Positions 1,512 through 58,072 of a DNA stretch of 64,000 bases are shown here, one piece after another; the first letter of the stretch is position 1; every line of letters begins with the position of its first letter. Below the pieces are notes generated by a model. That model did not search any database, was not told where the DNA came from, and was given only the letters and a program-made list of their open reading frames with translations. Source of the stretch: Bilabrum cf. latius. Taxonomy: Eukaryota. The stretch is taken from contig OZ237770.1 in NCBI GenBank assembly GCA_965178125.1, positions 372,001 through 436,000 on the forward strand. The letters are read 5' to 3'. The position numbers were made by a program, and so were the translations under genes.

Positions 1512-1941
1512 GGCGATGAACTGTCAATGTTTGTTGCACATCGATACGAGCACGTCGACAACACATTCAGCACGTTTCAGCCAGCGAAAGCATCAATGTA
1601 TGAGAGAAAGCGGTAGTTCATTATAATACGGTAAAATCTAGTAGAATGGCGGGTCAAACACTTACGCAGCTCACGAAATATTCAAATCGATCGGTCCGTT
1701 GGGTCATTGGCCGGCGCCGCGGTCGGTCGCGGCTCCGCAGCTGTCGCATCATCACGGTGACAATTGGTCGCTTCCAATCCCGAATCGGTCCCCCCGATTC
1801 CCCGAAAAGCATGCGTTGAGGCATGAATTGCATTGCTACGAGTCGATGGATTCCATTTCAAAATCTATCTCAGCTCAGCTCGCCTAGGTATAACAGTCAA
1901 CAAAGGCCCCTTGCACCAGGGGCCAGCCCAGCAAAGGCACC

Positions 1942-4900
1942 TCACGCCTCCCCAGCCGCCCCGCTCGCCCCTCCAACCGCCGCACCCCCATCACTCGTCA
2001 CACCACCCCGCCCCCCTCCGGCCCTCAGCCCCGCCACCTCCGCCCTCAGAAGCGCCAGCTCCCTCCTCTCCGCCTCCGCCGCAGCTGCACCACCCCCGCC
2101 CGACTTGCCCACGGCACCGAACTGAACCTTCCTGCACCGCTCGGCAAACTGCAGGGAACACATCGATTCCTCCGCGTTCCACTGCACCGGGGACACGTTC
2201 ACCATCATCAGCAGCTTGGCAGTACCTGACAACGAGTCCTGCAGCAGGAACGTGAGCTTGCTGTTGCGGAACGGGACGTGCCCCCCCGCTCCCGCCCCGG
2301 CTCCTCCCGCCGCGCTCCCGCTCTTGGCCTGCCTCTGCCCCAGTGCGGCAACCACCGCGCCAAGTGCACTCAGGCTCTTGTTGATGGCCTGCGCTTCTTT
2401 CAGCTGCTTACCCTGCGCCCTGGTCTTGGACAGCCTCTCTGACCCCGCCAGGTCGATCATGTGCAGCTTGGCACGCCACTTGCCTCCCGTGGCCCCGTCC
2501 TCCCCGCGGACCCGAACGGTTACAACCAGGTGTGACCTGCTGGAGTGCTCGTTCATGTCGTGTGCCGCCGCCGCCCGCCTCTTGCTTCCCTTCCGAAGCA
2601 CCTCCGCCACCTCTGCTGGGCTGCTCACCGCTTCCTCTGTAAGCCCCGGCACGTCCACACCACGGGCGGTGAGCCGCACCTCTAGAGTCGGGGGGCCACC
2701 TCCACCTGGTCTGCTCCCCCCCGCCCTGCGGCTGGCTTTCGATGAAGCTGCCGATGATCCCGCCCCTGCCTTGCCCGCACTCGCCACACCGGCCAGCAGG
2801 TCCCTCACCGTCTCATTGTAGATCTCCAGCATGGACACGCTGAAGCCGTACTTCATCCGGGGGGCCCTTGCACTGCCCTCCTCGAACAGCTCGCTGATGG
2901 CACGGTAGTTCACCCCCCTGTCCTCGGGCGGACCCTCCATGGTGTGCGTCTTACCCGAGCCCGTCTGGCCGTACGCAAGTATGGTGGCGTTGTACCCGTC
3001 CAGCACGCTGTGCACCAGCGGCCTCACCTCCTCGAACACCTCCCTCTGGCTCGACTCCGGGCGGAACACGCGGTCAAAATCGAACCTTCGCTTCAGCGCG
3101 CCCTCCTCGTCGGTGCTCAGCGAAAGTTCGTCCAGCGAACCCTTGGGGAAGGTCACCGCCTTCCTGCTGGCGAGCTTCCTGCCCCTCTCGTGGGACAGGA
3201 TCGGCCTGACCCTGCAGAATACCCGGATGGCGCCCCGCATGTCCACCAGAACATTGTGCAGCTTGCGCCTGCGCTTGCACTCGACGACGTGCATTGCCTT
3301 GTAGTGCTCCACCTCGCCTTTCATCTCTGCCTCTTTCTACATTACCCGCCTGTCAGCTTCCTACTTGGCTGCAGCTAGGTTTTCGGCATTCTCCAGAAGA
3401 GTAGATTCACGCATATCTTCACTCGCTTGCCTGACCGCACTTGCCTACTACTCGTCCCGCTCCTTGCCCAGAGCTGCCAGAGCCTGGGACTGCTGGTCGT
3501 CCCGCTCCTTGCCCAGAGCTGCCAGAGCCTAGGACTGCTGCTCGTCCCGCTCCTTGCCCAGAGCTGCAAGAGCCTGGGACTGCTGCTCGTCCCGCTCCTT
3601 GCCCAGAGCTGCCAGAGCCTACGACTGCTGCTCGTCCCGCTCCTTGCCCAGAGCTGCCAGAGCCTGGGACTGCTGCTCGTCCCGCTCCTTGCCCAGAGCT
3701 GCAAGAGCCTACGACTGCTGGTCGTCCCGCTCCTTGCCCAGAGCTGCCAGAGCCTGGGACTGCTGGTCGTCCCGCTCCTTGCCCAGAGCTGCCAGAGCCT
3801 ACGACTACTGCTCGTCCCGCTCCTTGCCCAGAGCTGCCAGAGCCTACGACTGCTGCTCGTCCCGCTCCTTGCCCAGAGCTGCCAGAGCCTACGACTGCTG
3901 CTCGTCCCGCTCCTTGCCCAGAGCTGCCAGAGCCTAGGACTGCTGCTCGTCCCGCTCCTTGCCCAGAGCTGCCAGAGCCTGGGACTGCTGCTCGTCCCGC
4001 TCCTTGCCCAGAGCTGCCAGAGCCTACGACTGCTGCTCGTCCCGCTCCTTGCCCAGAGCTGCCAGAGCCTGGGACTGCTGCTCGTCCCGCTCCTTGCCCA
4101 GAGCTGCCAGAGCCTACGACTGCTGCTCGTCCCGCTCCTTGCCCAGAGCTGCCAGAGCCTAGGACTGCTGCTCGTCCCGCTCCTTGCCCAGAGCTGCAAG
4201 AGCCTACGACTGCTGCTCGTCCCGCTCCTTGCCCAGAGCTGCCAGAGCCTACGACTGCTGCTCGTCCCGCTCCTTGCCCAGAGCTGCCAGAGCCTAGGAC
4301 TGCTGCTCGTCCCGCTCCTTGCCCAGAGCTGCCAGAGCCTAGGACTGCTGCTCGTCCCGCTCCTTGCCCAGAGCTGCCAGAGCCTAGGACTGCTGCTCGT
4401 CCCGCTCCTTGCCCAGAGCTGCCAGAGCCTGGGACTGCTGCTCGTCCCGCTCCTTGCCCAGAGCTGCCAGAGCCTACGACTACTGCTCGTCCCGCTCCTT
4501 GCCCAGAGCTGCAAGAGCCTACGACTGCTGCTCGTCCCGCTCCTTGCCCAGAGCTGCAAGAGCCTACGACTGCTGCTCGTCCCGCTCCTTGCCCAGAGCT
4601 GCCAGAGCCTACGACTGCTGCTCGTCCCGCTCCTTGCCCAGAGCTGCCAGAGCCTACGACTGCTGCTCGTCCCGCTCCTTGCCCAGAGCTGCCAGAGCCT
4701 GGGACTGCTGCTCGTCCCGCTCCTTGCCCAGAGCTGCCAGAGCCTACGACTGCTGCTCGTCCCGCTCCTTGCCCAGAGCTGCAAGAGCCTGGGACTGCTG
4801 CTCGTCCCGCTCCTTGCCCAGAGCTGCCAGAGCCTGGGACTGCTGCTCGTCCCGCTCCTTGCCCAGAGCTGCCAGAGCCTGGGACTGCTGCTCGTCCCGC

Positions 4901-7900
4901 TCCTTGCCCAGAGCTGCCAGAGCCTAGGACTACTGCTCGTCCCGCTCCTTGCCCAGAGCTGCCAGAGCCTAGGACTGCTGCTCGTCTTGTGTCTTGTGTA
5001 GCTCTGTTAACGCTTGCTGATGAGTCTCAGTAATCTGAGCAATGCGCTTGTGTAGCTCTGATGCATCCTCCTGTGCTGCTTCCAATGCTGCGCCCGATTT
5101 ACCAGCATCAGATGATAGCTGTTTTTCCAACTACTCTACTTTAGCATTGGTGGCTTGCATCTAGTGGTCCAATGCGACCTTAATGGACTACGCATCGGCA
5201 AGCGAGTCCTGTAGCTGCTGGTTCTGCTGCTCCTTGGCCTGCAAGTCGGTCTGTAGCTGCTGGTTCTGCTGCTCCTTGGCCTGCAAGTCGGTCTGTAGCT
5301 GCTGGTTCTGCTGCTCCTTGGCCTGCAAGTCGGTCTGTAGCTGCTGGTTCTGCTGCTCCTTGGCCTGCAAGTCGGTCTGTAGCTGCTGGTTCTGCTGCTC
5401 CTTGGCCTGCAAGTCGGTCTGTAGCTGCTGGTTCTGCTGCTCCTTGGCCTGCAAGTCGGTCTGTAGCTGCTGGTTCTGCTGCTGCAGCACAGCTTCATTG
5501 CTACGTTGCGCCTCGGCTTCCGCTGCCATCTTGGACCTGGATTTCTCAAGCTACCGATCCGCCTACTGTTTGCTTTCCTCAGCTGCGGTAAGCTATGCTT
5601 GCATCCGATCCATCTGGTTCTGCAGATCCACGATCTTCTTCCTGCTGACATCTAGGTCCTTCGCCAAGCGGTCCCTCTCCGTCTGCAGCTCCAAGACAAC
5701 GTCAGTGCCCTGCTGCTGGCCGCCGCGGCTGTCTGTGGAAGTGTCTGTGGGGGTCGCAGGTGCCGGCCGAAGTTGCTACGTCTCTGCCAGCTCGGCCGTC
5801 AGCTTGTGCGCCATCGCCCGACTGGCAGCCAGCTCCTTCTCGCGATCGTCCAACCGAGCCTCCAGCTCATCAATCATCTCCCTGTCCGAGTCCCGTTCCC
5901 GCTGCAATCGATCCAGCGCTTTTCGCCTGCTCTCTTCTGCTTTAGCGTCCCTGGCCCCTGCCTCCCGCAAGTCCTCCACTTCGGCCATCACGTCATCCAG
6001 ATTGCGCTGGGTATCGGATAGTTCCTTGCGGGCCTTCGTCAGCTGCATGCTCCTCTCCTGCAGCTGACTCGCCTGCCCCTGCAGCTCCTGCACCTCTCGC
6101 TCGAGAGCGCCGCATCGTGCCTGCTAGTCGACTAATCTGGCCTCGGCCTGTTCTGCGCGGTGCCTCAGCTCCTCCTCTTCTTCTTCTTCTTGCTGCTGCT
6201 GCTGCAGTGCTGCAGCTGCATCCTGATCCTGCTGGCTTGTGCCAGCGGCCGAATCACTCAAATTTCCCGCGCCCACACTGACTGCAGCGCTCGACGCACT
6301 TGCATGACCCTGCCCACTCGCTGGACCACCTGCCTGTGATGCAATCTGCGACTGCTTCTCCTTGTCCTCCTCATGTCTGCCCCTGTGAATGTATCTCTGC
6401 ACCATGATGCGAAGGGCCTGACACTCGGTGTGCAGCCGAGCACTTGTCACACGCTCTGCTTCCAGCTGCCGGCGAAGATTGGCCGCAGCAGTGGGGTCGA
6501 GCGCAGGGCTCGCAGCCACGTCAACATCGCACTGGCGCGCATCTACCTTGGCCTCGACGGCGGCCTCTCCGTCTCCACCTCCATCTCCATCTCCATCTCT
6601 CTTTCCACTCCCGAGTGTTGCGGCTGTCTCCAGCCTCGCTTCCGCCTCCCGGGCCCGGACCATCCACTGGTGGAGCTCCTTCCTGAGCGATGCACCACCC
6701 TGCAATGCATGCATGCCCGGTGGATTCGATTCCGGGTCCATATCGCGACCGTGTTCCCCCGCACCATCGCGGGGCTCGCCCCCTGCATCCTTCCCAATGC
6801 CCTCTGCTCCTGCTCCTGCTCCATCCAATCCGCCTGCGTCTGTTCGCGTGCCGTCCCCAGCGCCCGCACCAGCTCCCAGCTCCCCATCACCCACTCGCCC
6901 CTTGCCCAGCCTCACCTCAGCTAGTGCCAGCCGACTCGCCATGATGCCCAAGGCCTCCTCCTTCCTGCCCAGTTGCCACCTGGCGTCCTGAAGCGCCACC
7001 ACAGCACGACGAAGCGCAGCCTCGAGGGCCCGTGCCGGCATGGACCCGGCCACCGACAGGTCACGCGCCGCCGCGCTCGCCGCCTGGGCCGTGGGCGAGG
7101 ATGCCCGCCTCCGTGGATGATGCCTCACGGGTGTGCCGCTCGCCGATCGGAGCTGCGCCACGGTGGGAGAGGTGCGCTCGGGGCCCGCCTGTACTTCCTC
7201 GCGCACTGCGGCTGCGATGGAACGGGCCGCCGCAGATGCCGATGGTTTGGACCCGGATGATCCTGGAGAAAACAGCGCTTTCCTGCGCATCGGAGAGCTG
7301 TCCTCGTCATCCTCTGGCCCCCCATTCGATTCCGGATCCCCGTCCGCAGGTCTTGCCCTGCCACCGGTAGCGATACCCCGCCCCGTTGCCCTCGGTAGCG
7401 CCGGGGTAGCCTGCACGCTTGGGGGGAGGCTCGGGGGCTGCGGCTCCGACGACGAACCCCCGGTGGATTCCGGCTCCGGGTCGTTTCCATAGCCCGCAGG
7501 TGTTCTGGTCTGGCGGACAGCAGAGGCGGGAACAGGGGTGCGGTCTGCGGAACCGGCGCCGCGCGAACGCCCCACGGCCCCGCCTTCCGACGGAGATTGG
7601 ATCATGGGAGAAGGGGTGGGGGTCGGGGTCGGGTCCTCCCCCTCGACCTCTGTGTTCACCTATGCTTCCAACTGCTCCTGCTCCTGCTCCTGCTCCTGCT
7701 TCTGCACCCGGTCCTCATCCTCGTCCTCATCCTCGCCCACCAGTGATGTGATCAGCGAGCCGACGCCCTGCTCCAGTGACCCGCCCAGGCTGTACAAGAA
7801 CGAGCCGAAGCCTTCTTCCTCCTGCCCGTCCACCTCGTCCTTCCTACCCACCCCCTTGCTTGTAGTGGGCGAAGGGCCCAGCTCCCCAACCAGCGCACCA

Positions 7901-9138
7901 CCACAGTGCGATGCATCCAGTCGTTCCTTCTCCCACGATGATACCTATTTCAGCTCCGATTCCTCCACCCCCTGCAGCCACCTCGCCGCATCCCTCCCCC
8001 CCTGCAAAGCCGCGAGCAGCCGGAACCTCCACCTCGATTTGTTCTCCTCCTCGCTCAGCCTTGCCCCAAGCTGGGTCAGGGAACCCCGGAGCGCCGCGCA
8101 CTCTGCTTCGTGTTGCGCAGCGGCCACCCCCGCTTGTTCCCTGGCCTTGCGCGCCTGTGCCTCGGCCCCCCTCTGCCTCTCCTTCGCCTCTGACAGCCGG
8201 TCCGCGAACTGCTCCAGCTTACCCTACAGCACGGCGTAGTCGCTCTGGGACTGCTCCGACTGGCGACTTGCCTCCGCTGCTGCGGACTCGGCCGCGGTGG
8301 CGCGGGCTCGGGCGCGGGCCAGCTGCACCCGGGCGTCCCTCAGCTGGACGAGCAGGTGCTCCGTGCGGGTCTGCTCGGCGGCAACGGTGTGACGAGCGAG
8401 GGCGCTGGAGGCAGCTGCCGAGCCCGTAGTGGGGGCGGTTAGTTGAGATTGGGAGCCGCATGCCGAAGATGCCGCTAAGTCCCCACTGGCAGCGCTAGCC
8501 TCGGTCTGGTCCCGACACGATGCTTCCTCCCGGGACTGCAGCACCACCTGCCAGCATTCCGGGCCGAGGGTACCTTCCAAAGCGCTAGGACTGCTCGAGC
8601 CAGACTGACCTGTACTTTCAGATGCAGGCTTTGCATCCTACAAACAGGCCTCCAGCTTGTCAGCCATCATAAGCAAGGCTCCCTGCGAAGGTAGTATTGC
8701 AACTTCTCTACTGCCAAGAGGTTTGTTGGTATCGGCAAATCGACGCGACATCCACACTCGAACTGTAAACGTACCTATTGCTTGCGAATAAGCTGTGCTG
8801 AGCTTTGCTGCTACTCGTACATTAGTCGCTGCACATCGAGAAGTGCTTGCTTCGTTGCCTGCAATGTTGAATCAAGAACACCTAATCACGTGAGTACATG
8901 ACCCCATTGGACGCGAATCATGGAAATTCATCTAGATACGACTAACCTCCAGGGAATCATTGAGTTCTCTTTCCCGTAAAGCAGCTGTCTTTGAAACGGG
9001 TCTTTCCAGGCCGTTCGTACCTGCCAGTGCAGCTGTGGTCCGCTCCTTGTCAGTCGCTTCTTTTAGCAGCTCCTCGTCAGTCAAGCCTACAGGCTAATCA
9101 TCAACTTCATCTCCTAGAAGCCAGCCTGCGAATTCCAT
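1942..9138 (-). CDS. Kinesin-14 family (C-terminal motor) protein, ~2338 aa, with a long coiled-coil/repeat stalk. Predicted exons 9138-8947, 8858-8775, 8682-1942; TAG read as Gln
   Basis: Motor motifs RRKLHN..RGAIRVFCRVRP, AYGQTGSGKT, NEHSSRSH, DLAGSER and HVPFRNSKLT lie at the C-terminus. ORFs 1942, 5188, 5776, 6124, 7660, 7945 and 8224 share one frame separated only by TAG. Introns GTTAGT..TTGCAG (8946-8859) and GTACGT..TCGCAG (8774-8683) keep the frame. Terminal TGA at 1942-1944. Confidence 0.88.
3451..4986 (-). repeat. Coding tandem repeat, 34 x 45 bp, encoding QQSQALAALGKERDE
   Basis: The unit ctcgtcccgctccttgcccagagctgccagagcctgggactgctg repeats head-to-tail without spacers, in frame with the kinesin-14 motor. 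Confidence 0.97.
5209..5484 (-). repeat. Coding tandem repeat, ~6.5 x 42 bp, encoding QNQQLQTDLQAKEQ (two heptads)
   Basis: Identical units ctgtagctgctggttctgctgctccttggcctgcaagtcggt; translated in ORF 5188..5529. Confidence 0.95.
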
Positions 9139-9264
9139 GATTGTGACGCGGATGCGGTCGTGCGTAGCCCCAACCAATGTTAGAATTCATCTTCGAAAAA
9201 TTCCCCGGTTCAACAAGTTGGCAGCCAACAAATTGTACTCCCTTGTATCTCCTCAAAGTAAGGC
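9139..9264. promoter_or_regulatory. Putative bidirectional promoter (126 bp between divergent ATGs)
   Basis: AT-richer gap between the predicted kinesin-14 ATG (9138, -) and the membrane-protein ATG (9265, +). Inferred from gene layout only. Confidence 0.45.
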
Positions 9265-11935
9265 ATGGATGTCTAGCAATGCTGCAAGTGTCTGCTCGAG
9301 CAATTCAAGTGCCTCAAAGACCTTAGGGAGAGGTCAAGGCGGATTCTTGTATCGATAATGATTGGTGCATCGGTATATTCGTTAGGTATCGGTTTATATA
9401 CTGCTTACATGCTTGTAAGTCAATATTTGCAATACATGTTGCTATGCGGCCGGGTTCTTCAGCCAGTGTAATGCATCTCTTTCCAGGGTAATGCGTTGGC
9501 GTACTATAGTCGCCGCAGATTGGAACGGGAAAGATTGACATCCCAAACTTCAAAAATATCCTCACCACTCGACCGATAACAAACATCTCAATAGTCAATT
9601 CGCATGGAAGCTGTCCTAAAGATTTCGAGATGCTCTTGGATCCAAACGATATGATCTGGCCAGGAACAGCGTCAGGGGCTTGTGCTTGCCCGATGCCTGG
9701 CAAAATAGCCAACTCCCCTTCAAGCAGCGAGCTGTCCTGCAGTCACGAGCAAATCATTGCGGGATGTGCTACCGGTAAGATACAAGCAATGCGATTGCCA
9801 TATTTTTCGCAGCAACCCGCTCGGTCGTCATTCTTATCGTTAATGGACATTTCTGTTCATAGGCGTGCTTCACGTACTAATGTTTAAACTATTTGTACTA
9901 CTTCGCAGATCCGGCGATCGGCCCGATCGCTTCTGTTTGGCATGGCATTCGCGGACTATGTGTCCAGCGACATGCCACTGCTCGTCTATTCGCAAACGGG
10001 ACTGACAATCACGGGAAGACCCGATTATAGCCACGGCCAATGGTTTCCATGGCAGCATGCCCCACTGGCTGGAGAGCGTGCATTCCGAACGGCACGAGGG
10101 CAACCACTCCCTTGGATGGCTCTGCTTGCGTGCGGGACGACGCAGAGGTCCAAGAGCCCTGCCCCCTCACTGGGATTGCCCTTCTCACGAGGGACCAGCT
10201 AGATGCCTCAAATGGTACCTACCAAGGCAGTATCGCGCTGCCTAACGACGAATCGCTAGTACTGGCATACACGGTCGCGCATCCCGGTGGTGTACGGCCC
10301 GACGCCCAATGGGGAAAGCCTCTTGCGCCTCTGCAGCACTTCGAGCTTACTCTTGGCCAGTACCCGTGCTTACGAAGCGATGGTAACCCTGATGGCGTTC
10401 GCAGTTGGTACGCAGTGCAAGGGAGCAGTACAGCCGGTGATGGAAGCAAGTGGGACGATTGCTCGTTGCATCACACATAGAACACACTCTTTTCTGACTT
10501 TGCAACAGTCGGAGTGCAGCCAAGGCTTGGGTAGGGTGGCCACTTGCACGATACATTTGCGTAGTCAGAGCGTTGCACAGTGGATCCAGCTCGCCCAGAG
10601 GTACCAGCAATGCGGTGCAGTCCGAATGATACAATTTGTGAACGCGTTTCACACACAGGCCGTTGTGAGAAACTCCAACGCTTCGCTGCGATGTAGACTA
10701 AAGATCCAACAGTGAATGTATCTCTGGTAGCCAGAAAGGAGATGTGGGTCTCCCCATATTGCCCAGACATTGCTCAGTTGTTGGCGGGGCACATGAGCAC
10801 AAGCGCTGACGATCTTCAATACGCGGCGTACGTTGCAATCGCATTAAATTTGTTCGTTTCGTTGGTGCAAGCATCTCAACGATGCACGTTGCTCTGTGTT
10901 GGGTTTGCGTATGGCGGTTTGGAGCCTGATTCCGACGAAGATTCTGCCTCCAAGAGCGAATGGCTCAAGCATGTTGGCTGCATTGAATTCGACAATACGG
11001 GCGACTGGTACTAGGTACTAACCGAGTCGACCCCTTGTCAGCAGTGGGGCGGGGTTTTGCTTCTTGCTCTCTCGGTGTTCAACCTTGCTGCTCAACAGTT
11101 TGCTTTCTACTACGGCCGGAAACTGCTCCCTGTCGTTTTCGGGTACGACACTGGCGCAAGCTGCATGGAAGTGCCGGTGTATTGGGAATTTAATCGCGCC
11201 AGGCTATGGTACATGGGTATTAACAACAAGTTTGCTCAGACCTATTTTGCATCCTTCTTGCTCCTGTGCGGGGTACTGCTCATCTCAGTTGGGAGCTGCT
11301 GGCTTGCTTGCTTTCGGAAATGCTGTGGGCATCAACCCGACGAGCTAGAAGGGTCCATTGCTGAACGCGACTACCTTGAACTCGCTGACTGCTTGCGTGA
11401 GTAGGACACAGTCTTTGATGGGACAGACTAGCCAGGTCGCTCAATTGAAGCATTCGGACAAGTAGGTCCCGGAGCAGCCGGCTTCGCACATGTACCACTC
11501 GGGCTGTACTCCCCGGCAGACATCCGTACAAGTACACCGTGTGGAATACATGAGGATTAGTCTGACGAGGAAGCTGCCAGTGGGGAAGTTGAGGGGGACA
11601 TTTCGGAGCCTGAATACTAGTCCGTGTCAGTCCAACATGCAGAGACGGTGGCCTGCGATCGAATGCTCAGCACTAGTCGGCCCTACAAATACAGTAGCCG
11701 CAGGGGCAGCAACCGGGATCGGACAAGTCGACAAGCCGAGGAGTCCAGAACACCGCAAAGTGTTTCGTTGCCTGGCTAGGGCTCGGAAGCACTCATTGTA
11801 GATCCTGTTTCGCAGGAATAGTTCTATGAGTGCAACTCCAGGCAATTGGATCCCGATCTGGATTTGGACAACATGACGGAGCCAGCAGCAATGAGCGGAA
11901 CGAAAGCAGGTTCTCGGACCGAGAGTCTTGATTAA
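9265..11935 (+). CDS. Cys-rich multi-pass membrane protein of unknown function, ~810 aa. Predicted exons 9265-9414, 9519-9774, 9909-11935; ~13 in-frame TAG
   Basis: N-terminal hydrophobic segment (ILVSIMIGASVYSLGIGLYTAYML), Cys-rich ectodomain (PITNISIV..SCPKDFE..WPGTASGACAC), then three hydrophobic helices (ORFs 10712, 11057). Introns GTAAGT..CGCAG and GTAAGA..CGCAG restore the frame. Ends at TAA 11933-11935. Confidence 0.7.
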
Positions 11936-12216: not shown

Positions 12217-14216
12217 TCAGAACTGCGAGATGTCTCTCCCGAAGAAAAATGTACGCGCCCAGTCCGCCGGCACCTAGGCCCGGTTCCTCCAAGCCCCCAG
12301 CTTGGTCAAATACGCGCTCCTCCACACGATCCAGGCAGCCATCCCCACGATGCTCTTCGTATCGCCCCCCGTCACTGCTTTCGCCGCCTCGTTGGCTGCC
12401 TGCACGGGCGCTACTTTCGGGTCGATGGCCCCGCGCAAGTCTGCCAGAGCTCCCCAGCTGCCAAGGTAGGCGAGCGATCCAGCGTGCTTGTAGGAAAAAG
12501 GCGCCTGCCCCTCAAATGGCGCGACCTAATCCGAGACACCATCGTCTTGAGGGTCCTGATCCGACTGGCTTCCATCGCTCAGCACCACCGACTGGCCCCC
12601 CATCTCCAGTGTCGTGAGAGGGTCAACCGCGCCGCCGTGCACTGCACCCATCCCGTCCTCCTCCTCCGTGGCCCCCACGGCCACACTCATCCCCTCCCCC
12701 TAGCTTCCCTTCTTGCTCCCCTCCATCATCGCCCCCCTCCTGCTAGCTGCCTAGTTTAATAAGTCGGCCACGTAGGTGCCCTGCTGCTCAGCCACCTGGG
12801 CCGTGGCTGCCAGCCGCCGCCCCGCCACCGCGCAGCAGTCCCCGATAGCAAACACCCCTGGCAGTGTGACGAATGCGTCGTCGTCCTCTGCCCCCGGGTT
12901 CAAAGCCCGCATGAACTCGTCGGTCATCACGTGGCCCCACCCGTCCTTGGCCCAGGTCCGCCGGTCCAGGCTCCCAACGAGCTTCCTGGGGGCGATCCCC
13001 GTGGCCCAGACAACAAGCCCGTGCTCCACCTCCTCCCCCGTGCTGAGCACGACGTGCCTGTCGGTTACCTTGGTCACAAAGGCGCCCGTCTTGACCCGGA
13101 TCCTCTGCCTGGCGAACCTTCGCTTCGCGTAGTCCCTCAACTCGGAGTCGAAAGCCCCAAGGATGTCCTGCCCCTCGATCAGGGTTATGCTCAGCTCGCC
13201 CACGGCCTCGGGATACATCCTCCAGAGGTCCTCGTACACCAGGTCGTGCAGCTCAGCCGCCATCTCCACGCACGTGGGCCCGCCCCCGCACAGCACGAAG
13301 GAGAGCAGCCTGCGCCGCTCCTCGGGGGGTGTCCCAGGGAAGGAGGCAGCCTCCACGTTCCTGAGGATGGTCTGCCGGATGGCCCGCGCGTCAGCCAGTT
13401 CCTTGAGGAAGTGCACGCCGTTCTTCCGGTTTACGCCCTCGATCCCGAAGTCGTTGGACCGAGCGCCCACGCCCACCACCAAGAAATCGTACGAGACGTC
13501 GGTGGTGCGGAACTGCGGCCCGCTGTCGTCTCGGTCGCGGGCGTCCGCAGGGACCTCGGAGTGCGCGGCGCCGGTTGCGGAACCTTCCGGTGCGTCCTGC
13601 GCCGCCGCCTCGGCGAGGGCAAGCACGGGCCGGGTAGCGTCTTCGATTTCTACTCGGATCTATTTCTGCTCCGGATCGATGTGGACGGCTCTGCCGCGCT
13701 GGTACGCGCAATGCGGCAAGGAGGAGCGCACGGGCTCGGCCACGGACCGGAATTCTAACGTGCCGGTGGCCGAGGATGCAAGCAGCGGAGTGAAGAGCAT
13801 GTGGTTCCTAGGACTGCGAGAATACAAATCGACACAGCTAAATCTATAATCAAACGCACGGTAGCCAGGTAGGGCTCGACTGCATGAGCTCATTTGATCG
13901 AATAGGCTGAGTTGCACCTTGGAGATGCTAACGCGTTCCGGACATTCAAACACCAGAATCATGCGCATGAAGCGCCCACGGGTTAGGCAAAGATACGGTA
14001 ATACACAATCATTTAAGAATCTGCATACCTGATGATCGTAACATCGAAGTGCTCTGGGTGCAGCTGCCGAGCAAGTGCGAAGCTGCCCCAACCGGATCCG
14101 AGGACAGCGACTCGTTTCTTCCTTCTTCGCGCGAGCGCAGACGCCGATCGAACAAACAATCTACGCAAAATGCGCCCCGCGAGACTAACTGCACACCGAT
14201 CGGTGATCGCTTGCAT
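12217..14216 (-). CDS. Type II (alternative, rotenone-insensitive) NAD(P)H:quinone oxidoreductase, ~594 aa; intron 14028-13814; 5 in-frame TAG
   Basis: Motifs VAVLGSGWGS, SPRNHMLFTPLLAS, YDFLVVGVGA, CGGGPTCVEMAAEL, FAIGDC and ATAQVAEQQG. Past the TAG at 12751 the conserved C-terminus follows (PFSYKHAGSLAYLG...WRSAYLTKLGAWRNRA[TAG]VPADWARTFFFGRDISQF), ending in TGA at 12217. An upstream in-frame ATG at 14270 is possible. Confidence 0.92.
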
Positions 14217-14380
14217 TCTCAGGAATGTCCCGAACACTGGCTACGAATCGCGGTGAAACCACCGCTTCATGAACCTTCGTTTTCGCGAAAAACGCGGCGA
14301 AACAGCCAGCAAACGTCAAACCTAAGACTTTGAATTTCAGAAAATTGCTCTTCGTTTCTTCTTGCCCGATAACACCACCG

Positions 14381-17300
14381 TCACGCCAGGCTGAACACGG
14401 CCTGCTTGATCCTCTCCTGCAGCTGCCTCTGGGCCGCCTGCAGGTCAGCCATCACGTGCACGCGGCCGAGCCCATCCCCCAGCAGAAGCAGCCGCCCGTG
14501 CGCCCCCCACGCCAGCTGGGTCACCGCGGGCCGCAGGGACTGCAGCCCCGGGGGCATCTCCCGCCGCATGACCCCGACATTCCCAGGGGGTGCAACCTCT
14601 AGGGTGTCCCCGGGGGTGCTCCCCGCCGGACCTGGGGGACCATCATTTTCAGTCCCTCCCCCACCCATGCCCAGCATCCGGAAGAGCGACCAGCCCTAGG
14701 AGGACGAGGAGGATGACCCGGCCTGGTGGCCCCTCGCACTCGTCACACCGCCAGAGCGCGTGGGTATTGCTGTGCCCCCCGACGCCGCGAATGCCCTCTG
14801 CTGACCTGCCTGCCGCTGGGCCCTGCCACCCAGGGACATCGACATCTCGTCCGAACGACCGCGGGCGTCACTCGTCACACCGGCTTCCGCCCTGCTGCCA
14901 GGTCCTTCGGCCGTGTCTCGAGTGCTCCCATGACTGCCGGCCCGCATCGTCTCCCTCGCCGCCTCGGCCTCTGCCACTCTGACCACGTCATACACTGCTT
15001 TGGCCACCCCTAACGGAGCACTCGGAGACCTGGTCAAACCCGTTTCTGCAAGATCCAGGCAGCGAAACACTGGCATGTCCCCACCGGCGGTGCCAGCCGC
15101 CAGCACCTGCCCATCCGCGGACACGGCCAGCTGCGATGTGACGAGTCCCTGGGGAACAGTGCGGGCCGCGAGGGGCTCACCGTTGCGAGCGTAGGTCGCC
15201 AGCAGGGAACACACCACAGGGTGCAGCTCCAGCCTAGGCGACTCGCCAGACACTGACCCAGGCCCAGACCCAGGCACTCGGCCGCTGGCCCCCGCCCCCC
15301 CTCCGGATCCCCGGTGCCACAGCGCGCACCCCGCGGCGAGAGCAGAGCCCTTCTCGTCTCTCGGCTAAGTGCACGCTACTAATGCTCCACCAGCCGCAAA
15401 TGCGATGGACCGCACAGCTCCCGAGCCGGGAAGCAGAGCTGCAGCACTACTGCCATCACCACCACCGTCAGCAGCATCGATTCCCGCGGTAGCAGCAGCA
15501 GCAGCAGCAGCAGCTACTGCTCCCCGAATCAGCGCCGCCTCCCGGAACGCCTTGGACTGCCGCGCAGCGGCGTGCCGGCGCCATTCCGACTCCGGGTCCC
15601 TTCGCACCCCGGGGGCCCCTGCCGCGCCGACCCATCGCCTCGTCCCCAACAGCGCCGGTCCGATCTCGGGGTCCATGCACGCGGGGGGCTGGCTCCAGGC
15701 CTTGCTCCCGTTGGACAGCCCCTGCACGTGCACCCACCCATCGGTAGTGCCCACGGCGAGAAGGTCCTGCGAGACTTCCATGGCGACGGCGGTGATGCCG
15801 CAGTGCGATGCATCCCAGGTGCGCACCAGCACGAGAGCCACGTCAGATGCAGGCCCAGGGAACACGTCACCCGCCCGCACAGCGGAAGGGGGCGCCCCTC
15901 CGCCGCCAGCGTTGCCGCTGCTTCCATCAAGCAGTGCAGAGGCCGGACCAGAACCCTCCTCCCCGTGAGGGGGGGTACAGCCCCCCGCTCCATCCCCCCC
16001 GCCGGCGGTATTTTCGGCTCCGGATCCTCCTGCTCTCCCGTCGACCGGTTCCTCTTGCTCCTGGCTGGAGGAATAGCCGTCCTGCCCGTGGCCACCGGCC
16101 CCTGACGCACCCGAAGATGCACCACCGAGCAGTGCACCTTGGATGTGCCCCCTCCTGCCCCGCTGGTAAGCTCTCAGCTCAACGGCTAGTCCCGCTTGCT
16201 GGGGAGACCGGCGCATGGGCAGAGGGCTCGGGGCCACCTCGGATGCACCGCCGTGCGATGCACCCGCCTACAGGTGTCCCCTCGGTGCACCCCGAGCGGG
16301 CCTCATTCGGCTCCGGATCCCCGCCTCCTCGTCCCGACCGCTCGTCCTCCCATGCATACCAGACCCCACCGCCGCGGCCTGCGGTGTCACCACGCGGAAC
16401 ACCCTCACGCTCCCGTCCGAATAGCCCGCGCATAGTGTCAAGCCGTCCTCACCGGTTGCAACCACAGTGGCATGGGGACTCCCGGGGAGGCTTTCCGCCG
16501 CAAGTGCATCGCATTGCAGCGTCCGAGGACCGGCCACCCGGCGCCACCGGAGGGCCCCATCGGCGTACCCGGCCTGAAACTGCACGCAACTTATCCCCTG
16601 CGCCACATCGGCCCTTGGCCCCTGCCTCGCCAGCCGAGCGGAGAAGCAACCGCTGGGGGCACCCCCCCACACAGCGGGGTCACCCCCCGTGCCAGTCCCC
16701 CCCCATCCAGCCCTCCCCCTGGCCTGCGACAGCCCGCACCCCTGCCCCAGCAGCAGCGGACCGGCATCGGGTGCGCTGAACAGGGGAGTACCCCCGGAGG
16801 AGGGGGACCCCTCCCCTCGCCTCCCCCCCCGCTCCGATCGATGCCTCAGCAGAGCCTCCTGCAGCTGGGCGGCACCCGCGGCCACGTCCGCCGGGCATAG
16901 GTTCCGCAACCATGGCGCGGCGCCCGGGTGCCCCACGCCCCCGCCGAAGGCCACCCCCTTAGAACCGGCCAGACGGGCTCCCAGGGAACAAGCGGCGCCG
17001 CCGAGGGAGGTTCCGCTGCCACTTGCCCGCAGCGAGGCAGAGGACCGCACTGGTGCCAGCACCGCCAGCTGGCCTATGTGACGAGTGCAGCTCGCGCCCC
17101 AGGTGCCCTGGGAGGGGTGCAGCGGGGCAGCGGAACTAGCCCCTGATCCGATCCCTCGTGCCTCATCGATCGATCGGAGCATGGAGCACAGCCTTCTCCA
17201 CGCAGCGTGCCGCGCACGCTCCCGGCCTGTCATGCTGGTGTTGCCACTCGTCACACCGATGCTGCCGCTGGCCTGGCCTAGCAGAACGGCAGCAGCATCG

Positions 17301-49957: not shown

Positions 49958-52900
49958 TTACGTTCCTCGGGGCTTACCAGGCGGTGGTCGGGCAGTGGGG
50001 GGCTTCGGCAGTCCGGCTGCCGCAGTTGCCTTGCCCCGCTTCGCCTTTGCTCGCGTCCCTACCTTCTGCTTCTTGGCCCTGCTGGCGGTGCCTTTAGTTG
50101 TAGAAGGAGACCGCTTCGCAGTCTTGGAGCCAGAGCTCCCTGAATCCTTGATCCTCTTAGATCTGGGGGATGGCGGTGAGGGCAATGGGGGCGGGGAGGC
50201 GGGGGACCGACCGCGCGGGCTTCGAGGAGGAGAAGCCTTGACCCTTACTGGGGGGCGAGCAACAGCACCTGACTTCGTTCTAGGGGGGGCTGGGCTTGTG
50301 GCAGGGCTTGACCTGCCTGTGCCTGTGCCTGTGCCTGCCTTGCCCCGCTTGGGTCTGTGGCTGGATTCCACAGCCTTGGTAGACCTGCTGGCACCTGTGC
50401 TGCCGGTCTGCGCACCTTGGATGGATGGGGGCTTTGGTCGCGGCGCTGACGCACTCATCACACCATCCTAGACCGGAAACGCAGGCACGCGCCCACCTGG
50501 GGGCGTTGGCACACCACTGGCACCTGTCACGCCGCCATATCCCGCCCTTGCCCTTGCTCTTGCTCTCGCTCTCGCTCTCGCTCTCGGACTGATGAGCCCC
50601 CTGCCCGGATCATCCACCCCTCCAGCTGTTCCCTGGGGACCACCACTCTACCCCATCGCCCCCGGACTCGTGGGATCGTCCAGAATAGCCCGAACGCGCG
50701 CCCCCACCTCCCTTGTCCTCTTCAGGATCTCCTCCAGGCTGGGCAAAGTGGCCACGGGAGCAGGACGGGTGGAGGGAGACTCGATCGAAGCAGCGGCTGC
50801 ACTCGTCACACCGTCGCGCTCCTTCCTCCGGTCCTGCACCAGGGGTGGTGTCTCGGCGAAGCGCACCCGGCTCCCGCCCAGCCTGCCGCGATCCGATCCT
50901 TGATCCGATCCTGACCCCTAGAATCGGGCACCGGGCTGCCCCGCGACACCACCTGCCCGCCCACCACCTCGGCCCTGTCGCAGCGATGACTTCAGCGCGC
51001 TGTCGCTGGGCGCGGCGCCCCCGCTCCCGTTGCGGAACATGCTCCCAGACAGGAGACCCCTCGTGTCCGTTTCATCACCACTCGCATCGTCTTGCTGCTT
51101 CCTCCCCTGAGTGTCTAGACCTAGGCTGCTTTGGCCACTAGCTCCGCCTGTTGACTAGTCCGTGGGCTCCGATCGACCGCCGCTGCGTGAGGCATCCCAG
51201 TGCGCTCCCATCGATCCCACGACACGGCTCCCCCTTTGTCCACCCTATCCGCCAGCTTGCCTCGCCCCCCCAGGAGAGGCGAAGGCCAGCGGGGATGTCC
51301 CGGCGAGGGCAGACAGGTCCAGGCCTTGAGTCCCACTGCGGGTGCTGCTGCCTGCGTTGTTCTCTGGGCCTGGGTCTGGGCCCGGGTCTGCAGGCGCACC
51401 TTGTCCGTTGGTTGATGAAGAGGTGCCGGCTTGGGGGGGAGTAGAGGGAGACGAAGAGGAATAAGGTGATGACGATGACGATGGAGAGGGTGATACAGCT
51501 GGGACCCGCCCCGGTCCCACTGCGGGAGGACCCGTCCCCCTGACCACTCCATGGCCGTGGGAATGCATCGGGATCTGTGGATTAGCCCAGCTCGATTCCC
51601 ACACTGAGACATGCGGCGCACTGGCCATGCCCAAGCCCTCCACGATGGGACCTGCACCTCCTCCTGGCCTACCTGCCCCAGTGCCGGGCAGCACCCCTCG
51701 CGACTAGGCGGGACTCTAGCCTGTCCACGGATGCATCGCATTGCCGTGGACGCCCCGATCAGCCTCCCTGTTGCCCCCAAGCGCCTGGTGGTGCTGGGGC
51801 TAAACGTGCACTGGCCGTGGAGCGGCAGGCGCGGGGGACGGCACCCACGTGGGCATGGGGCCCACCCCTCCCGTCCTCGTCACCCACGGGTTCCCGTGTG
51901 ACGAGTGAGTCTGGTGTGACGACTGATACGGGGTGGTGGAGCTGGTTCCCGGCGTCAGCGGAGGGGGTGCATAGTGCGGTGGTGGTGGGGAAGAAGAGGC
52001 AGAAGAGGAGGAGGCACCCTATCCTTGGTGCTTCGGCGGAGCGGGCGCACCACCGTGCGATGCACCCGATAGACTCCCCACAGTACCGCCCCTGCTGCTG
52101 CCCCCCTTCTCCCCCCCCGCCTCGACCTCTGCCGCCAGCCGCCGAGCCGCCCTCGCTGCCTCTGCCCGCAGGCTGGCCATAAGCTCGCCGGAGACTGCTA
52201 GCGAAGGAGCGCTGGGGCTGGGACCGTCGGGTGTGACGAGTGATTCGATGGGGCGGGGGGACTCCCGCGCGCGGGTTGCACCCTGGTGACTGGACCCCAA
52301 GGGGATGCCCCCCTGGGGGATTGACCCCATGTCGGGGACAGAGGCAGGGGACACCTGAAAATCCAGCGAGAGTGGTGTCCCCGGCTCGCTGCCATCGTGT
52401 CCGTTCGGCTCCACCAAATCGTGCGGCTGCCTGGCTCCATAGTATACCTCCCTCAGCTCTTCTTTCTATTCTTTCTACTCTTTCTCGTCCTCCTGGCCCT
52501 GGCGCCGGGTCCGGCCCAGTCCCTGTCTATCCGTTTGCCCGGTCTGTTGCTGCCGCTCACCCGCATCCCCCCGCATCTCATGGGCCTTGCTGCCATCCAA
52601 GCCATGGTGCTGCAACCCTGTCTCCGCCGGCATATCACTCGTCAAACCGCCATGGCTTGGATGGGACTGCCAGTGCTCATCCCTCCCCCCATCCGCCCAT
52701 GCAGCAGCGCCATCGTGAGCATCCTGAGCCCCGTCCTGGCCCGTTGCCTGCTGTGAATCGCCCTGCGCCTTCAACCCGCCCTTATTGACACCAGTGGCCT
52801 TTGGCGACGCATCGGTGCCTGCTGGTTCCGCTGCATCGGTCTTTTGCCCGACGGGCAGCGGGGAGCCATCCGCTCGTGGTGACCCGGCTGTCGCATCGAT

Positions 52901-55900
52901 GGCACCCCGGGGTGGTGACCCGGTCCCCCTGCCGACGTGTTCCCTGGGTGGTGACCCGGTTCCCCTTCCCACATGTTCCCTTAGCTCGTCGAAATCATCG
53001 CCATCTACTTCAATTGCATCTCCAGTCGACTCATGTGCATGTGCATGTGCATGTGCATGTGCATGTGCATGTGCATGTGCAGGGGCATGTGCATGTGCAT
53101 GTGCATGTGCAGGGGCATGTGCATGTGCAGGGGCAGGTGAAGGTGCTTGCTGCTTGCCTTTCCTCCGACGAGCCAGCAGCAGGGCAGCTGCAGAGGGCTT
53201 GCTCACCTGCCTGGGAGGGGGGGCCGGCGCCAGCGGACGAGCCTCCTCCATCTATTGTGCGGCTGCTGTCTAGCTCGTTTCACCGTGGCTGCCTTCACCC
53301 TTGCCCTCGCCCGTGCCTTTGCCATCGTGGGATGCATCGCCGCCGTGCTTGTCTTGTCTGGACCCAGCCAATGAGGCCGTGACGCTGGGAGACATGGCAC
53401 CGGCAATGGCGTCCCCATCGACCCCGGGGGTACGCGGGGTCATTGCTCCCCTGGTGGGGGGCGGACTCGCGAACGATGCCACGCTGATGTGGTCCTCATC
53501 ACCATCACCATCACCATCACCACCGTCCCCATCACTATACTCATTCGCACCGCCATCTCTATTCCCGCCAAAATCACCTGCCCCGGGCTCTCTGCCACCC
53601 TCTCTCTCACCCGGCCCTGGGTCATCCTCGATCTCCTAACCGAGGGACCCATAGCTAGGCACGTCCGCTCCTCTACCCCCCCACCCCTGCACCTGCTCCT
53701 GCTCCTTCTCCTCCTCCTCGCCGTTGCCATTGCCATCGCCGTCGATGGAGTCAGCCTCCGGGACATCCACTTCTCCCAGTCCTCCCGCCTTGGACCAAGA
53801 CTGACTCAAATCAACTCGCTGCATCGATCGACCTCCCTGCGACGACTGGCCCACGTCCCCGCTTCCCCTTGTTGGCGTCGTGCGTTTGTCCTGAGAGACT
53901 GCATTCGAGTGGGCTGCTGAGTCCCCGCTGCCATGCAATGCACCCCCGCTGGCCCCCAACCCCTCCCCCAACTGAGTCACGCTAGCGGCCAGCTGCTCCA
54001 GCGCCACCTCGATCCGATCCATTTGGCCACCCCCCGCAGAACCGGGGCTTGCGCCGGGGCTGCGCAGCGGCCGCACATCGGTGTGACGAGTATCTTCCAG
54101 GGCTAGCTCCACTCCTTTTCCGCCTGCTGGTCCTGCCAGCTCGCCGTGACCCTCAGCCTGTGAGTCGGTTGGCTCACCCGTGGGGCCCTGGTTCTGGCTC
54201 TGCATCGGCACTGACCCGACATGCTCATGTGCGCGCACCTGCACCTGCCCGCGCACCTGCTCATGTTCCCTGTCGATCCCTGCTCGACTAAGATCTCCGC
54301 TCGTCACACCAACATCAGTACCACTCGTCACACCGAGTGGTTCCCCAGGCCCAGCCAGCGCGGACAGTGTCAGCGTGCCACCCTCGGCTTCATCTCCATC
54401 TCCATCTCCATCCCGATCTTCTTCTCCTTGGTTTTCTTCCTCCTCGGCTTGCTGTCCCCGCCCATGCTGCTTCTGCTTGGCTCTCCCGCTATTTCGATTG
54501 CCTTCTGCACGCCCCACCCCTTCCTCAGGCCCTCCCCTCCCAGGGGGCTCCCCCCCGATGCTCCATCGCCTTACACCCTCCTTCTCTTCGATGCCGAGTC
54601 CCTGCTCCGATCCTACACCCCCACCCCCATCCCCACCCTCCGCCAGCACCATCAGCGACCGGGCCAGCTCCCGCATCGCACCCCGGTCCAAGCCGGCGAT
54701 CGTCTCTAGAGAGGGGCCGCGAGCACCACCGTGCGATGCACCCGCATCCACGGAGCCCCCGTCGGCCTTTTCATCATGTTCAGTGTGACGAGTGACCTAC
54801 CCCCCCCGGGCCCGCCTGCTCTGCAGCTGCTTGCCCAGCGCCTCGGCCAGCGATGCCGCCAGCTTCACAGCCACCCGCTCCACGACAGCGGCGCTGCTGT
54901 CGCTGTCGGCGTCTTGGGTGTGACGAGTGCGGTCCGTCGGTGGCTCCTGTGTACCCACCATTCCTGGTCTGACCCTAAAGCCTGTACTGGTGCCACTCGT
55001 CACACTGGTACCCCCGCCAGCGCCACCGGCTCCCTTTCGCAGCGGCCCGCTGGTCCGGTGATCGGTTGCAACCGCCGCTGCGGGGGTCGCGGTGGGGGTG
55101 GGAGGGGCGGGCATACCCGGAGGGGGCGCCGGCTGCGGTGCACCAAATGCACTCGTCACACCGCTCGCGCCGCTGGCTAGCTGCCAGCCGCCTGCAGTGC
55201 CCTCCCCGCTGCCACTGCCCCTCCCCCTCTTCCCCCCCTTCTCCCTCTCCCTCTACCTCTCCAGCTGCCCCCGCATCCTCTGCACCTTCTCCTCTGCCTC
55301 TGCCTCCACAATGGCCAGCCGATTCGCGATCGCCTCCACTGCCTCCTCCGCCTCCCTCCTCCCCTCTTCAGCCTCCAGCACCCTGCCCCTCAGAGCATCC
55401 AGCTCGGCCCGCTCCCGCCCCGCAGCGTCCTCTCCGTCCAGCGCCCTGGTCTCCAGCTCTTGTTCCCTGGACCTGGCCGCCTGCAGCTCCCTCACCAGCC
55501 CCTCTTTCTCCTGACCCCACGCCTCCTCCCTCTCCACCAGCAGACCCTCCGCCTGCCTCCGCCTGTCCCTCTCCTCATCCACGCGCCGCTGCAGCCGGGA
55601 CACAAGGGCGCGCGCCTCCTGCTCCCCCCCCAGCCCCAGCCGAGCCATCGCCTCCGCGCTCAGCCCAAGCTCCCGCCCCAAGCTCACCAGGGTCTGCGCC
55701 CCCGGGCGGCGCCCCACCCCCCTTGCCCTTGCAGCGAAGAGCAGTGAGCTCTGAGTCTCGGACACGTGGTCGTCCGATGGACTCAGGCACACCACCAGCG
55801 TCAGGGAACAGCCGCGCTCGGCGATCACTGAGGCGGGGGTGTGACGAGTGCTTGAAGATCCCCCTTGCCCCCCCTCGTGTTCCTCCTCCCTCTCCTTCTC

Positions 55901-58072
55901 CTCCGCATTCCCATTCCCCCCCCCACTCCCACTCCCTCTGCCACTGGCTTGGTGCTCCCCGAGCCGAATGCCCAGACCCTCCCCCGCCGTGGCCAAACAT
56001 GGCTGCAGCAGCCGAGTGAGCCTCGAGTCACGCCAGGGAACAAACGGGCCCTTGCCCCTCCTGCGGGCGTGCCTTGCCGCCGCCTCGCTGCCCCGCCCCG
56101 CCACCACCACCGTGGAGCCGGCCTCATCGGCAGCCGCAGCCAGGCCAGACACCACGGTCCCAAGCGCAGTCAGCGACGAGTTGATGTCCCGTGCCTCAGC
56201 CAGGGACTGGGGGTCTATCCCCGCCCCCGCACCGGGGTCCAGCCGCTGACCCCTCCCACCTCTACCCCCCTTCCCCTGGGGAGACCCCTTGGCCCCCGAC
56301 CATGGCCCCGCCCCCGCCGCTGCCCTATGCAGCCTCTCCGACCCCGCCAGATCCACGAAGGTCAGTCGACTCTCCTGCCAGGGCCCCACCTCGCGGACCC
56401 AGCCCCGCCCCGCCCCGCCCCCCTCCTCCTCACCACTCGTCACACCGTCATCCAGCCCGTCGAACCGTGACTGCAACCCACCCGAGGACTCCGCTGTCCC
56501 CCTCCCCCCTTCGGCTCCGTACCGACCACCACTCTCCACACCTGCCTCCCTGACCCTCCTCACCTGCCGCCTCCTCACTCGAACCAAAAAGAAGGAATGC
56601 CCGCGGGACGAGGCGTGGTTCCAAGCCGTCGATGCCACCGTCCGCTGCCTGGCGCCTTCGGACAACAAGCCGAGCACGCCCCTGACGTCACTGCATGCGT
56701 GTTCTCCAAGCCCACGGACCCAGGACCCCCCAGGCCCGTCCCGCACTTCCAAATCCCGCAGCACGCGGGACCCCTGCGTGTGACGAGTGCTGCCCACGGC
56801 GCCGCCTTGCCTGCCCCCCTCGGGCCCCCACTCGTCACCGTCCTCCTCCTCTCCTATCGCCGACCCCCCACTCGTCACACCGCCACCGCCTCGGCCGTCG
56901 TGGTGCTCCAAGAGGTCCTGTGCCCTCCCGAGATACAGCTGAAGGAAGGAAACGCTAAACCGGAACTCACTCCAGGACTCCACCTCGCACTCCACCCGGC
57001 CGTCTGCCCCTGCGTCCGCCCCTGCGTGCACCCCCCCCAGAATGGATGAGGCAGACGAGGACAGCGGGGACAGGGCGGGGCTCCCCACCCGCACGCCGGA
57101 CACATGCTCACGATCATGCTCGATGTCATGCTCATGCTCGCTGTCATGCTCATGCTCGGCTCTCCACTTGGCACCCCGACCAGCCGCCGCCCACGCAGCC
57201 GAGGGCGAGTCGGGCGCGAAGACTCCCTCCACCGCCCCCCTGCCCCTGCCTCTGTTTCCCCCCCCGCCCAAGCCAAGTGCCGAGGAAGCAGAGGCGCTGG
57301 AGGACGCGCGGGATCGGATCGCATCTCCCGCCCCATTGTTCCCCGGCCCACCGCCCCTCCCGCCCTGCATCCTCACATTCACCCTCCTCCTCATCCTCTA
57401 TAGATTCATCCTCCTCCTCTCTCTCCTTGGCCGCCCCAGCCGCGCCGCCGCCTCGAACAGCTCGTGCATGGCTCTCGGGATGAGACCCAGCCTAGAGGCG
57501 TCGTGCGCCGTGGCCCTGCGGCCGTCCAGCGAGGGCCCGAAGAGAGTGTAGGTCTTCCCCGAGCCAGTCTGACCATAGGCAAGCACCGTGGAGGACACGC
57601 CCCGCAGAGCGTCAAGCACCGCAGCGGCACCGGCGTCCCTGTACACGTCCGCCTGCGCCGCGTGGGGGTCGAAGGCGTGGTCGAAGACGAACCTTCGCTC
57701 GCGTTCGCTCCCCCGGGCCCCTGAGCCCCCGCTGGTGCCGGAGCTGCTCCGGGCACCGCTCTCGCTATCGTAAGGCCCCTCCCCCCGCCCCCCCCTCTGC
57801 TTGGATGGGGCCCTCGCCGCGCCCCGTCTGGGAGGCGAGGGCGATGCGGCTGATCGATTCCGTGCACCGCGCTGCCTGGAGCCAGACCTGGCCTTTGAGG
57901 AGCGCGTCTGCTGTGATTGCACGTGCTGGTGAGGGGCTGCTCGCAGCGTGATGCTCTGCTCTGACGGGTGGGCCTGGATGCGTTGGCACATGCCGTCGTG
58001 AGACGCGGGCGGGCGCAGGCGGGCGCAGATCGTGACGCGCTGGCAATCGACGACGCCCGATGACCGAGCCAT
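49958..58072 (-). CDS. Kinesin-like protein with N-terminal motor, coiled coil and long disordered tail, ~2704 aa; many in-frame TAG
   Basis: Motifs VTICARLRP, FVFDHAF, LAYGQTGSGKTYTL, GLIPR, SVSFLQLY, NHASSRGH, LTFVDLAGSER, INSSLTALG, FVPWRDSRLTRLLQ and SETQSSLLFAARA. ORFs 57398, 55253, 54797, 53636, 53270, 52475, 52019, 51245, 50648 and 49958 share one frame joined by TAG only. Ends at TAA 49958-49960, where GC content drops. Confidence 0.85.
53032..53130 (-). repeat. (CATGTG)n microsatellite encoding an (HA)n run
   Basis: catgtgcatgtg... tract; AHAHAPAHAHAH in ORF 52475..53251. Confidence 0.9.

Follow-up and report, generated by a model that had tools for sequence, protein, structure and literature searches.

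UAG very probably encodes glutamine in a GC-rich eukaryote: evidence from a kinesin-14 gene with a tandem array and from its neighbours

A 64,000-nucleotide stretch deposited under Bilabrum cf. latius (GenBank assembly GCA_965178125.1, contig OZ237770.1, positions 372,001 to 436,000 of the forward strand; hereafter the window) carries a kinesin-14 gene whose reading frame, which includes a 45-bp tandem array, is crossed by numerous TAG codons. It is virtually certain that TAG is a sense codon here, since the spliced gene contains neither TAA nor internal TGA, the same pattern recurs in ten open reading frames (ORFs), glutamine (Gln, Q) stands at such sites in relatives and a spliced contig keeps the reading frame. 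That the residue encoded is glutamine is very likely. We also consider it highly probable that in this organism UAG is translated as glutamine while UAA and UGA still terminate, the CAG/TAG differences between array units being synonymous. In-frame UAG was found in conserved genes and glutamine at the matching positions of near homologs, UAA was not used as a sense codon, and UAA and UGA were terminal, which places the organism among users of the code in which UAG alone is reassigned to glutamine. It is a new lineage with an already known code.

A kinesin-14 gene open through 45 TAG codons

The spliced kinesin-14 gene has 2338 codons, among them 45 in-frame TAG, with no TAA and no internal TGA. 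Its parts, numbered from the first letter of the window, are as follows:

1942..9138, minus strand: kinesin-14 gene, with ATG at 9138, exons 9138-8947, 8858-8775 and 8682-1942, and the stop TGA at 1944-1942.
8859..8946, minus strand: intron 1, 88 nt, GT..AG, G+C content (GC) 0.42; skipped in one contig of sequencing run X5, retained in contigs of runs X1 and X6.
8683..8774, minus strand: intron 2, 92 nt, GT..AG, GC 0.48; skipped in the X5 contig, retained in X1 and X6 contigs.
4987..8682, minus strand: N-terminal tail and coiled-coil part of exon 3, 1231 codons, with 12 TAG, 0 TAA and 0 TGA.
5209..5483, minus strand: second array of 6.5 copies of a 42-bp unit (100% identical), which encodes TDLQAKEQQNQQLQ; no TAG, all Gln codons CAG.
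3457..4986, minus strand: 45-bp tandem array of 34 full units, head-to-tail, encoding DEQQS-Q-ALAALGKER (510 residues); of its 26 in-frame TAG, 23 fall at codon 6 and the other 3 at codon 4.
3445..3456, minus strand: degenerate start of a 35th unit, GAC GAG TAG TAG, with TAG codons at 3450 and 3447.
2125..3213, minus strand: kinesin motor domain at the C-terminal end (Pfam PF00225, E 3.4e-99; residues 1887-2249 of the 2309-codon unspliced ORF).

If TAG is read through but nothing is spliced, the open frame extends from 8871 to the TGA at 1942 (2309 codons, 42 TAG, 0 TAA), and the other two sense frames over the same ORF contain 36 and 26 TGA. The array sits in exon 3. The 1231 codons upstream of it show a periodic GC by codon position (0.71/0.50/0.70), and each of the five other frames over that segment carries 10-25 TAA plus TGA.

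The motor occupies the C-terminal 464 residues and holds a low-complexity insert. Its best PDB matches were all kinesin-14 motors, namely KIFC3 (2.3e-79), KCBP, Kar3, KIFC1 and Ncd, which resemble the present protein in carrying the motor at the C-terminus after a neck and a long helical stalk. The present protein differs from known kinesin-14 in its very long and repetitive stalk (34 x 15 plus 6.5 x 14 residues), in the motor insert and in its total of 2338 residues. In a single-sequence AlphaFold2 model of six units, neck and motor, residues 2-178, comprising the units and the neck up to the motor, formed one helix (predicted local distance difference test score, pLDDT, 70-90) and the motor was poorly modelled. 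The 34 x 15 residues of the array are predicted to form part of a long alpha-helical stalk between the N-terminal tail and the C-terminal motor.

The 45-bp array

The array of 1530 nt was recovered by Tandem Repeats Finder with a period of 45, 34.1 copies and 96% matches. The initial annotation had counted CAG in 11 units and TAG in 23 at the S-[Q]-A position, and a per-codon tabulation of the 34 units returned exactly these numbers at codon 6. It likewise bore out the TAG reported in three units at a second Gln position (codon 4: TAG 3, CAG 31; TAG codon starts 4932, 4482 and 3807) and the description of all other variation as synonymous or Glu/Asp, which falls at codon 5 (TCC 19, TCG 15), codon 8 (CTG 28, CTT 6) and codon 2 (GAG 31, GAC 3). 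The remaining 10 codons of the unit showed no variation. That the array is in frame with a kinesin-14 motor was also correct, the PF00225 match lying at the C-terminal end of the same open frame. The 35th unit carries TAG at both of its Gln positions, which in full units read CAG CAG, and inside the array TAG alternates with CAG only, at three homologous positions.

Variation is confined to five nucleotide positions of the 45-bp unit (6, 10, 15, 16 and 24). All four combinations were seen for 6 of the 10 pairs of variable sites and the units fall into nine haplotypes, from which it follows that variants have been shuffled among units by exchange. A few C-to-T changes may have arisen in the array, and unequal crossing-over or gene conversion would then have spread them from unit to unit. 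Because only five positions vary, the ratio of 23:11 reflects few mutations copied rather than 34 independent trials. The array represents about five mutational events, not 34, and by itself cannot name the amino acid. With TAG read as glutamine, only one of the five variable sites changes the residue (Glu/Asp) and the other four are synonymous, as against 37 of the 135 possible single changes in the unit; this bias fits purifying selection on a translated stalk. The conclusion drawn earlier from the array, that TAG encodes glutamine, was supported, although the array is weaker evidence than had been claimed and the decisive evidence lies outside it. Detection of the repeat peptide by mass spectrometry, which had been proposed as a check, cannot test the assignment because 11 units encode the identical peptide with CAG.

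TAG as a sense codon across the window

Ten large ORFs, 19,151 codons together, contain 716 CAG, 156 CAA and 123 TAG, with no TAA and no TGA; their off-frames contain 216 TAG, 76 TAA and 634 TGA. They encode two kinesins, a BEACH-domain protein, a chitin synthase, a pseudouridine synthase (PUS), NDH2, a pyruvate kinase (PK) and three proteins without a Pfam family. Trimming at TAA was applied to four of them (ORF9, PK, chitin synthase and the second kinesin), whose zero TAA is partly by construction; the six untrimmed ORFs (BEACH, kinesin-14, ORF39, NDH2, PUS and ORF0) hold 86 TAG and no internal TAA. The counts exclude two TAG of the long NDH2 frame that lie inside a putative intron. The frames of the chitin synthase and of the second kinesin, when followed to their TGA, contain TAA only within the final 26-30 codons, so that TAA looks like a stop and TAG does not. 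Each of the ten ORFs ends at TGA or TAA, TGA being the commoner stop in the window.

Glutamine at TAG sites in near relatives

Near relatives could be aligned at ten TAG sites, where they have glutamine seven times, glutamate twice and lysine once. For NDH2, a homolog search returned the proteins P0122 (94% identical), P0123 (71%) and P0124 (61%), the last of them carried by a metagenome contig (L001) on which the end of NDH2 is followed about 840 nt on, on the same strand, by a kinesin-14 ortholog. The L001 kinesin ORF has 1228 codons, with 11 TAG, 0 TAA, 0 TGA, 30 CAA and 35 CAG. An exon-3 ortholog of 4987..8682 was found in L001, P0242, P0244 and P0246, and the kinesin N-terminal region is conserved in L001, P0242 (78% identical) and P0244 (85%), with TAG at differing places.

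Five codon pairs could be compared between the window and L001 in the long exon and in NDH2, and four of them are TAG/CAG. The window kinesin TAG at 8226 is CAG in L001; that at 7662 is CAG in L001 and Q in P0244; NDH2 TAG-726 is CAG in L001; and, in the other direction, one L001 TAG corresponds to CAG at window position 7155 and to Q in P0242. One further site, in exon 2, is ambiguous in this comparison. At the four alignable NDH2 sites P0122 has Q, K, Q and Q, and the PK site is Q in Cafeteria. BLOSUM62 sums over nine of the ten sites (the exon-1 TAG/E site being left out) were 38 for Q, 20 for E, 13 for K and -19 for L, only four of the 20 residues scoring worse than leucine.

P0245 is the L001 kinesin ORF cut at its TAG, which implies that gene calling for the database proteins treated TAG as a stop and that their Q residues are real CAG or CAA codons. 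P0123 ends exactly at the column of window NDH2 TAG-726, and P0122 begins three residues after the first NDH2 TAG of the window.

Several other routes to the residue gave little. A naive-Bayes classifier of TAG from the neighbouring residues (+/-4) was right for 1 of 20 known codons in calibration and was discarded as giving no usable answer. The chitin synthase TAG site was unusable, its PDB alignment starting after the TAG, and no homolog at E <= 1e-10 was found for the C-terminal part of the second kinesin, where 11 TAG are concentrated. A second metagenome locus (L002) was set aside as an intron-rich gene of an unrelated, lower-GC organism.

The L001 kinesin-14 ortholog runs, at 5494-5671, into a 45-bp array of its own, present in 4.0 copies at the contig end and built of an unrelated unit, ASQKEELEAASSAAL. 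The 15-residue period of the stalk seems, from these two sequences, to be conserved between the window and L001 while the sequence of the unit turns over.

Contigs from sequencing runs

Logan contigs of four runs were aligned to window positions 1600-9200. One X5 contig covers 8270-8681, 8774-8857 and 8946-9130, with both GT-AG introns precisely absent and the frame kept from the ATG, and is most simply taken as transcript-derived. The X5 run itself is labelled 'RNA? (probably DNA)', and among the runs listed as containing this sequence none is recorded as RNA. Other X5 contigs match the window without a difference over 2321-3480, that is from the motor to 24 nt into the array, and over 4957-5238, from 30 nt inside the array and then upstream. 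Contigs of three studies (X1, X5 and X6) show no difference from the window over the flanks that bear TAG at 3339, 3363, 3447, 3450, 4971, 5133, 5163 and 5190, and short unitigs with TAG units are present in X1 and X6. Unit number and unit order rest on the assembly, no Logan contig spanning the array and parts of it being without cover in X5, X6 and X8.

Alternative readings of TAG

Several observations weigh against the assignment of TAG to glutamine; the first concerns the decoding machinery and the others are given with the alternatives that they favour. UAG would be decoded by a tRNA-Gln with anticodon CUA, and eRF1 would have lost recognition of UAG while retaining that of UAA and UGA. 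No tRNA gene was found in the 64-kb window or in L001, an Rfam search gave no match, and the eRF1 gene does not lie within the window.

The alternative that survives best, though we consider it improbable, is that TAG is a sense codon for another residue, Glu, Leu or Lys. Glutamate appears twice among the near relatives, where one L001 TAG aligns with GAG at window 7446 and where the window exon-1 TAG at 9096 aligns with E in L001, and lysine once, at one of the four NDH2 sites in P0122. The columns of distant homologs were mostly uninformative or not Q: the PK column prefers I, L and M (I 32, L 29, M 15, H 10, Q 9), NDH2-726 has L in 56 and Q in 53 of 118 homologs, NDH2-567 has R 32, A 18, K 16 and Q 9, NDH2-264 has T 33, V 16 and K 15, and the BEACH column is A in both of two PDB homologs. 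Nor would the array itself discriminate, CAG to TAG being a simple transition and a surface position in a helical stalk being one that would tolerate several residues, E or K included. UAG as leucine is moreover known elsewhere (PMC5304391, PMC11687900). Against these points stand Q at seven of the ten nearest-relative sites, three of four in the 94%-identical protein among them, the TAG/CAG codon pairs with L001, the BLOSUM62 sums and, within the array, the alternation of TAG with CAG only. We therefore retain glutamine.

A dual TAG, sense inside genes and terminator near mRNA ends, is clearly less probable still. Context-dependent codes of this kind exist (PMC4967479), and ten genes are too few to exclude termination at TAG. 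All ten ORFs, however, end at TGA or TAA. The window NDH2 ends ...ISQF followed by TGA directly after the conserved C-terminus, at the same residue as P0122, and the L001 NDH2 ends ...VSQF followed by TAA, likewise directly after the conserved C-terminus. A sense TAG stands only 18 codons before the window stop.

If TAG were still a stop, the region upstream of 3339, array included, would be non-coding, intronic or part of a dead gene, and the motor would be expressed from a downstream start. This we judge very improbable. In its favour, the motor domain is without TAG, the last TAG of the gene being at 3339, and the array has a length divisible by 3 and all three of its sense frames open, so that its openness alone proves nothing. 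But the 1231 codons upstream of the array are free of TAA and TGA, unlike each other frame, and the N-terminal region is conserved in L001, P0242 and P0244 with TAG at differing places. Exons 1-3 run together in frame in the spliced contig, not one of the six joints listed from the Logan contigs over 1600-9200 crosses the array, and every other gene of the window also has in-frame TAG. The gene is better read as coding throughout, with TAG as glutamine.

Errors of assembly or consensus are a negligible prospect as the source of the TAG variants: repeat arrays are error-prone and the unit order comes from one assembly, but the TAG-bearing flanks are identical in X1, X5 and X6, TAG-unit unitigs occur in X1 and X6, and TAG stands in frame in all window genes and in the DNA of relatives.

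Relation to known codes

Loss of a G-ending stop codon is not expected in a GC-rich background, and a code change limited to UAG, in which UAA still terminates, was long thought constrained and is to our knowledge found in few lineages. In the ciliate, dasycladacean and Hexamita code (NCBI table 6) both UAA and UAG stand for Gln. UAG as Gln is common to that code and the one described here, but TAA is not sense in the window (0 TAA vs 86 TAG in the six untrimmed ORFs) nor in L001, which has 0 TAA vs 11 TAG despite CAA falling little short of CAG (30 vs 35).

Closer counterparts have been reported. In the nuclear code of Iotanema spirale, UAG is Gln and UAA and UGA are stops (Panek et al. 2017, PMC5304391). 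Iotanema is like the present organism in reassigning UAG alone to Gln with UAA and UGA kept as terminators, and differs from it in being an anaerobic fornicate known from a transcriptome, whereas the present organism is GC-rich (64%), has stramenopile-like matches and uses TGA as its commoner stop. The phyllopharyngean ciliates Hartmannula sinica and Trochilia petrani also read UAG as Gln and retain UAA as a stop (McGowan et al. 2024, PMC11687900); they are ciliates with UAA as preferred stop, whereas the window is not ciliate-like, with long GC-rich exons and stramenopile-like best matches. The rhizarian exLh and an uncultivated phyllopharyngean clade translate UAG as Leu, according to the same two papers (PMC5304391, PMC11687900). 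There too UAG alone is reassigned, while leucine is among the poorest-scoring residues at the sites compared here.

If the assignment is true, the organism adds a further independent UAG-only case in a GC-rich non-ciliate, common to several relatives with differing TAG positions, and offers a comparative series for how eRF1 loses UAG recognition yet keeps UAA. Standard-code annotation will break genes apart at TAG in this genome and in its relatives, as is already seen in P0245, P0123 and P0122.

Taxonomic setting

The window belongs to a GC-rich (64%), intron-poor eukaryote. The best named matches of its pyruvate kinase are stramenopiles, namely Cafeteria (63%), Mucochytrium (60%) and oomycetes (about 59%), a single-gene comparison that weakly suggests a stramenopile placement. 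A wider proposal, which we regard as evenly poised, is that a whole GC-rich and probably stramenopile clade uses the UAG-only Gln code, with at least four taxa: besides the window organism, those that P0122 (94%), P0123 (71%) and L001 (61-69%) come from. These taxa have so far been seen only in sequencing runs and metagenomes. The listings and abstracts covered by our literature search included no nuclear code change in stramenopiles.

Neighbouring genes and an over-represented word

Other features of the window are:

14384-37438, minus strand: ORF of the BEACH-domain protein, 7685 uninterrupted codons with 23 TAG, mostly low-complexity, with many copies of the 12-mer GTGTGACGAGTG.
49961-58645, minus strand: second kinesin, about 2900 residues, ending at a TAA 30 codons before the next TGA.
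9881-11932, plus strand: ORF without a Pfam family, between NDH2 and kinesin-14, 684 codons, 12 in-frame TAG, GC 0.54, weak codon-position periodicity.
13780-14451, minus strand: putative intron of about 450 nt that would separate a first exon of NDH2 (ending ...AVVSPR) from ...NHMLFTPLL, placed by eye from an alignment with P0125 and P0127.

The motor of the second kinesin is split by long Gly/Arg/Glu-rich inserts and is matched by Pfam in two stretches. The ORF at 9881-11932 is absent from L001, where NDH2 and kinesin-14 are about 840 nt apart.

The word GTGTGACGAGTG occurs in 45 exact copies in the 64 kb (sites 719 to 61272) and in 68 copies with at most one mismatch, where shuffled sequences gave an expectation of 0.28. 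Copies come about once per 1.4 kb, in both orientations and without conserved flanks (for example 1992-2003, 14737-14748 and 56869-56880). Inside ORFs the word is read as GVTS 26 times, as CDE four times and antisense (e.g. TRHT) 15 times, and never in the frame containing its TGA. A palindrome, GTGACGTCAC, was considered as the source of the recurrent 'GVTS' peptide and rejected, having one match only; the peptide comes from GTGTGACGAGTG instead. Neither PK nor the stretches of lower GC (ORF9, NDH2 and chitin synthase) contain an exact copy. L001 has one copy (3852-3863); the corresponding stretch of the window is equally long and of ordinary sequence. A literature search for the word returned only primers. 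GTGTGACGAGTG looks like a word over-represented at the DNA level, at a density comparable to that of bacterial uptake or Chi-type sequences.

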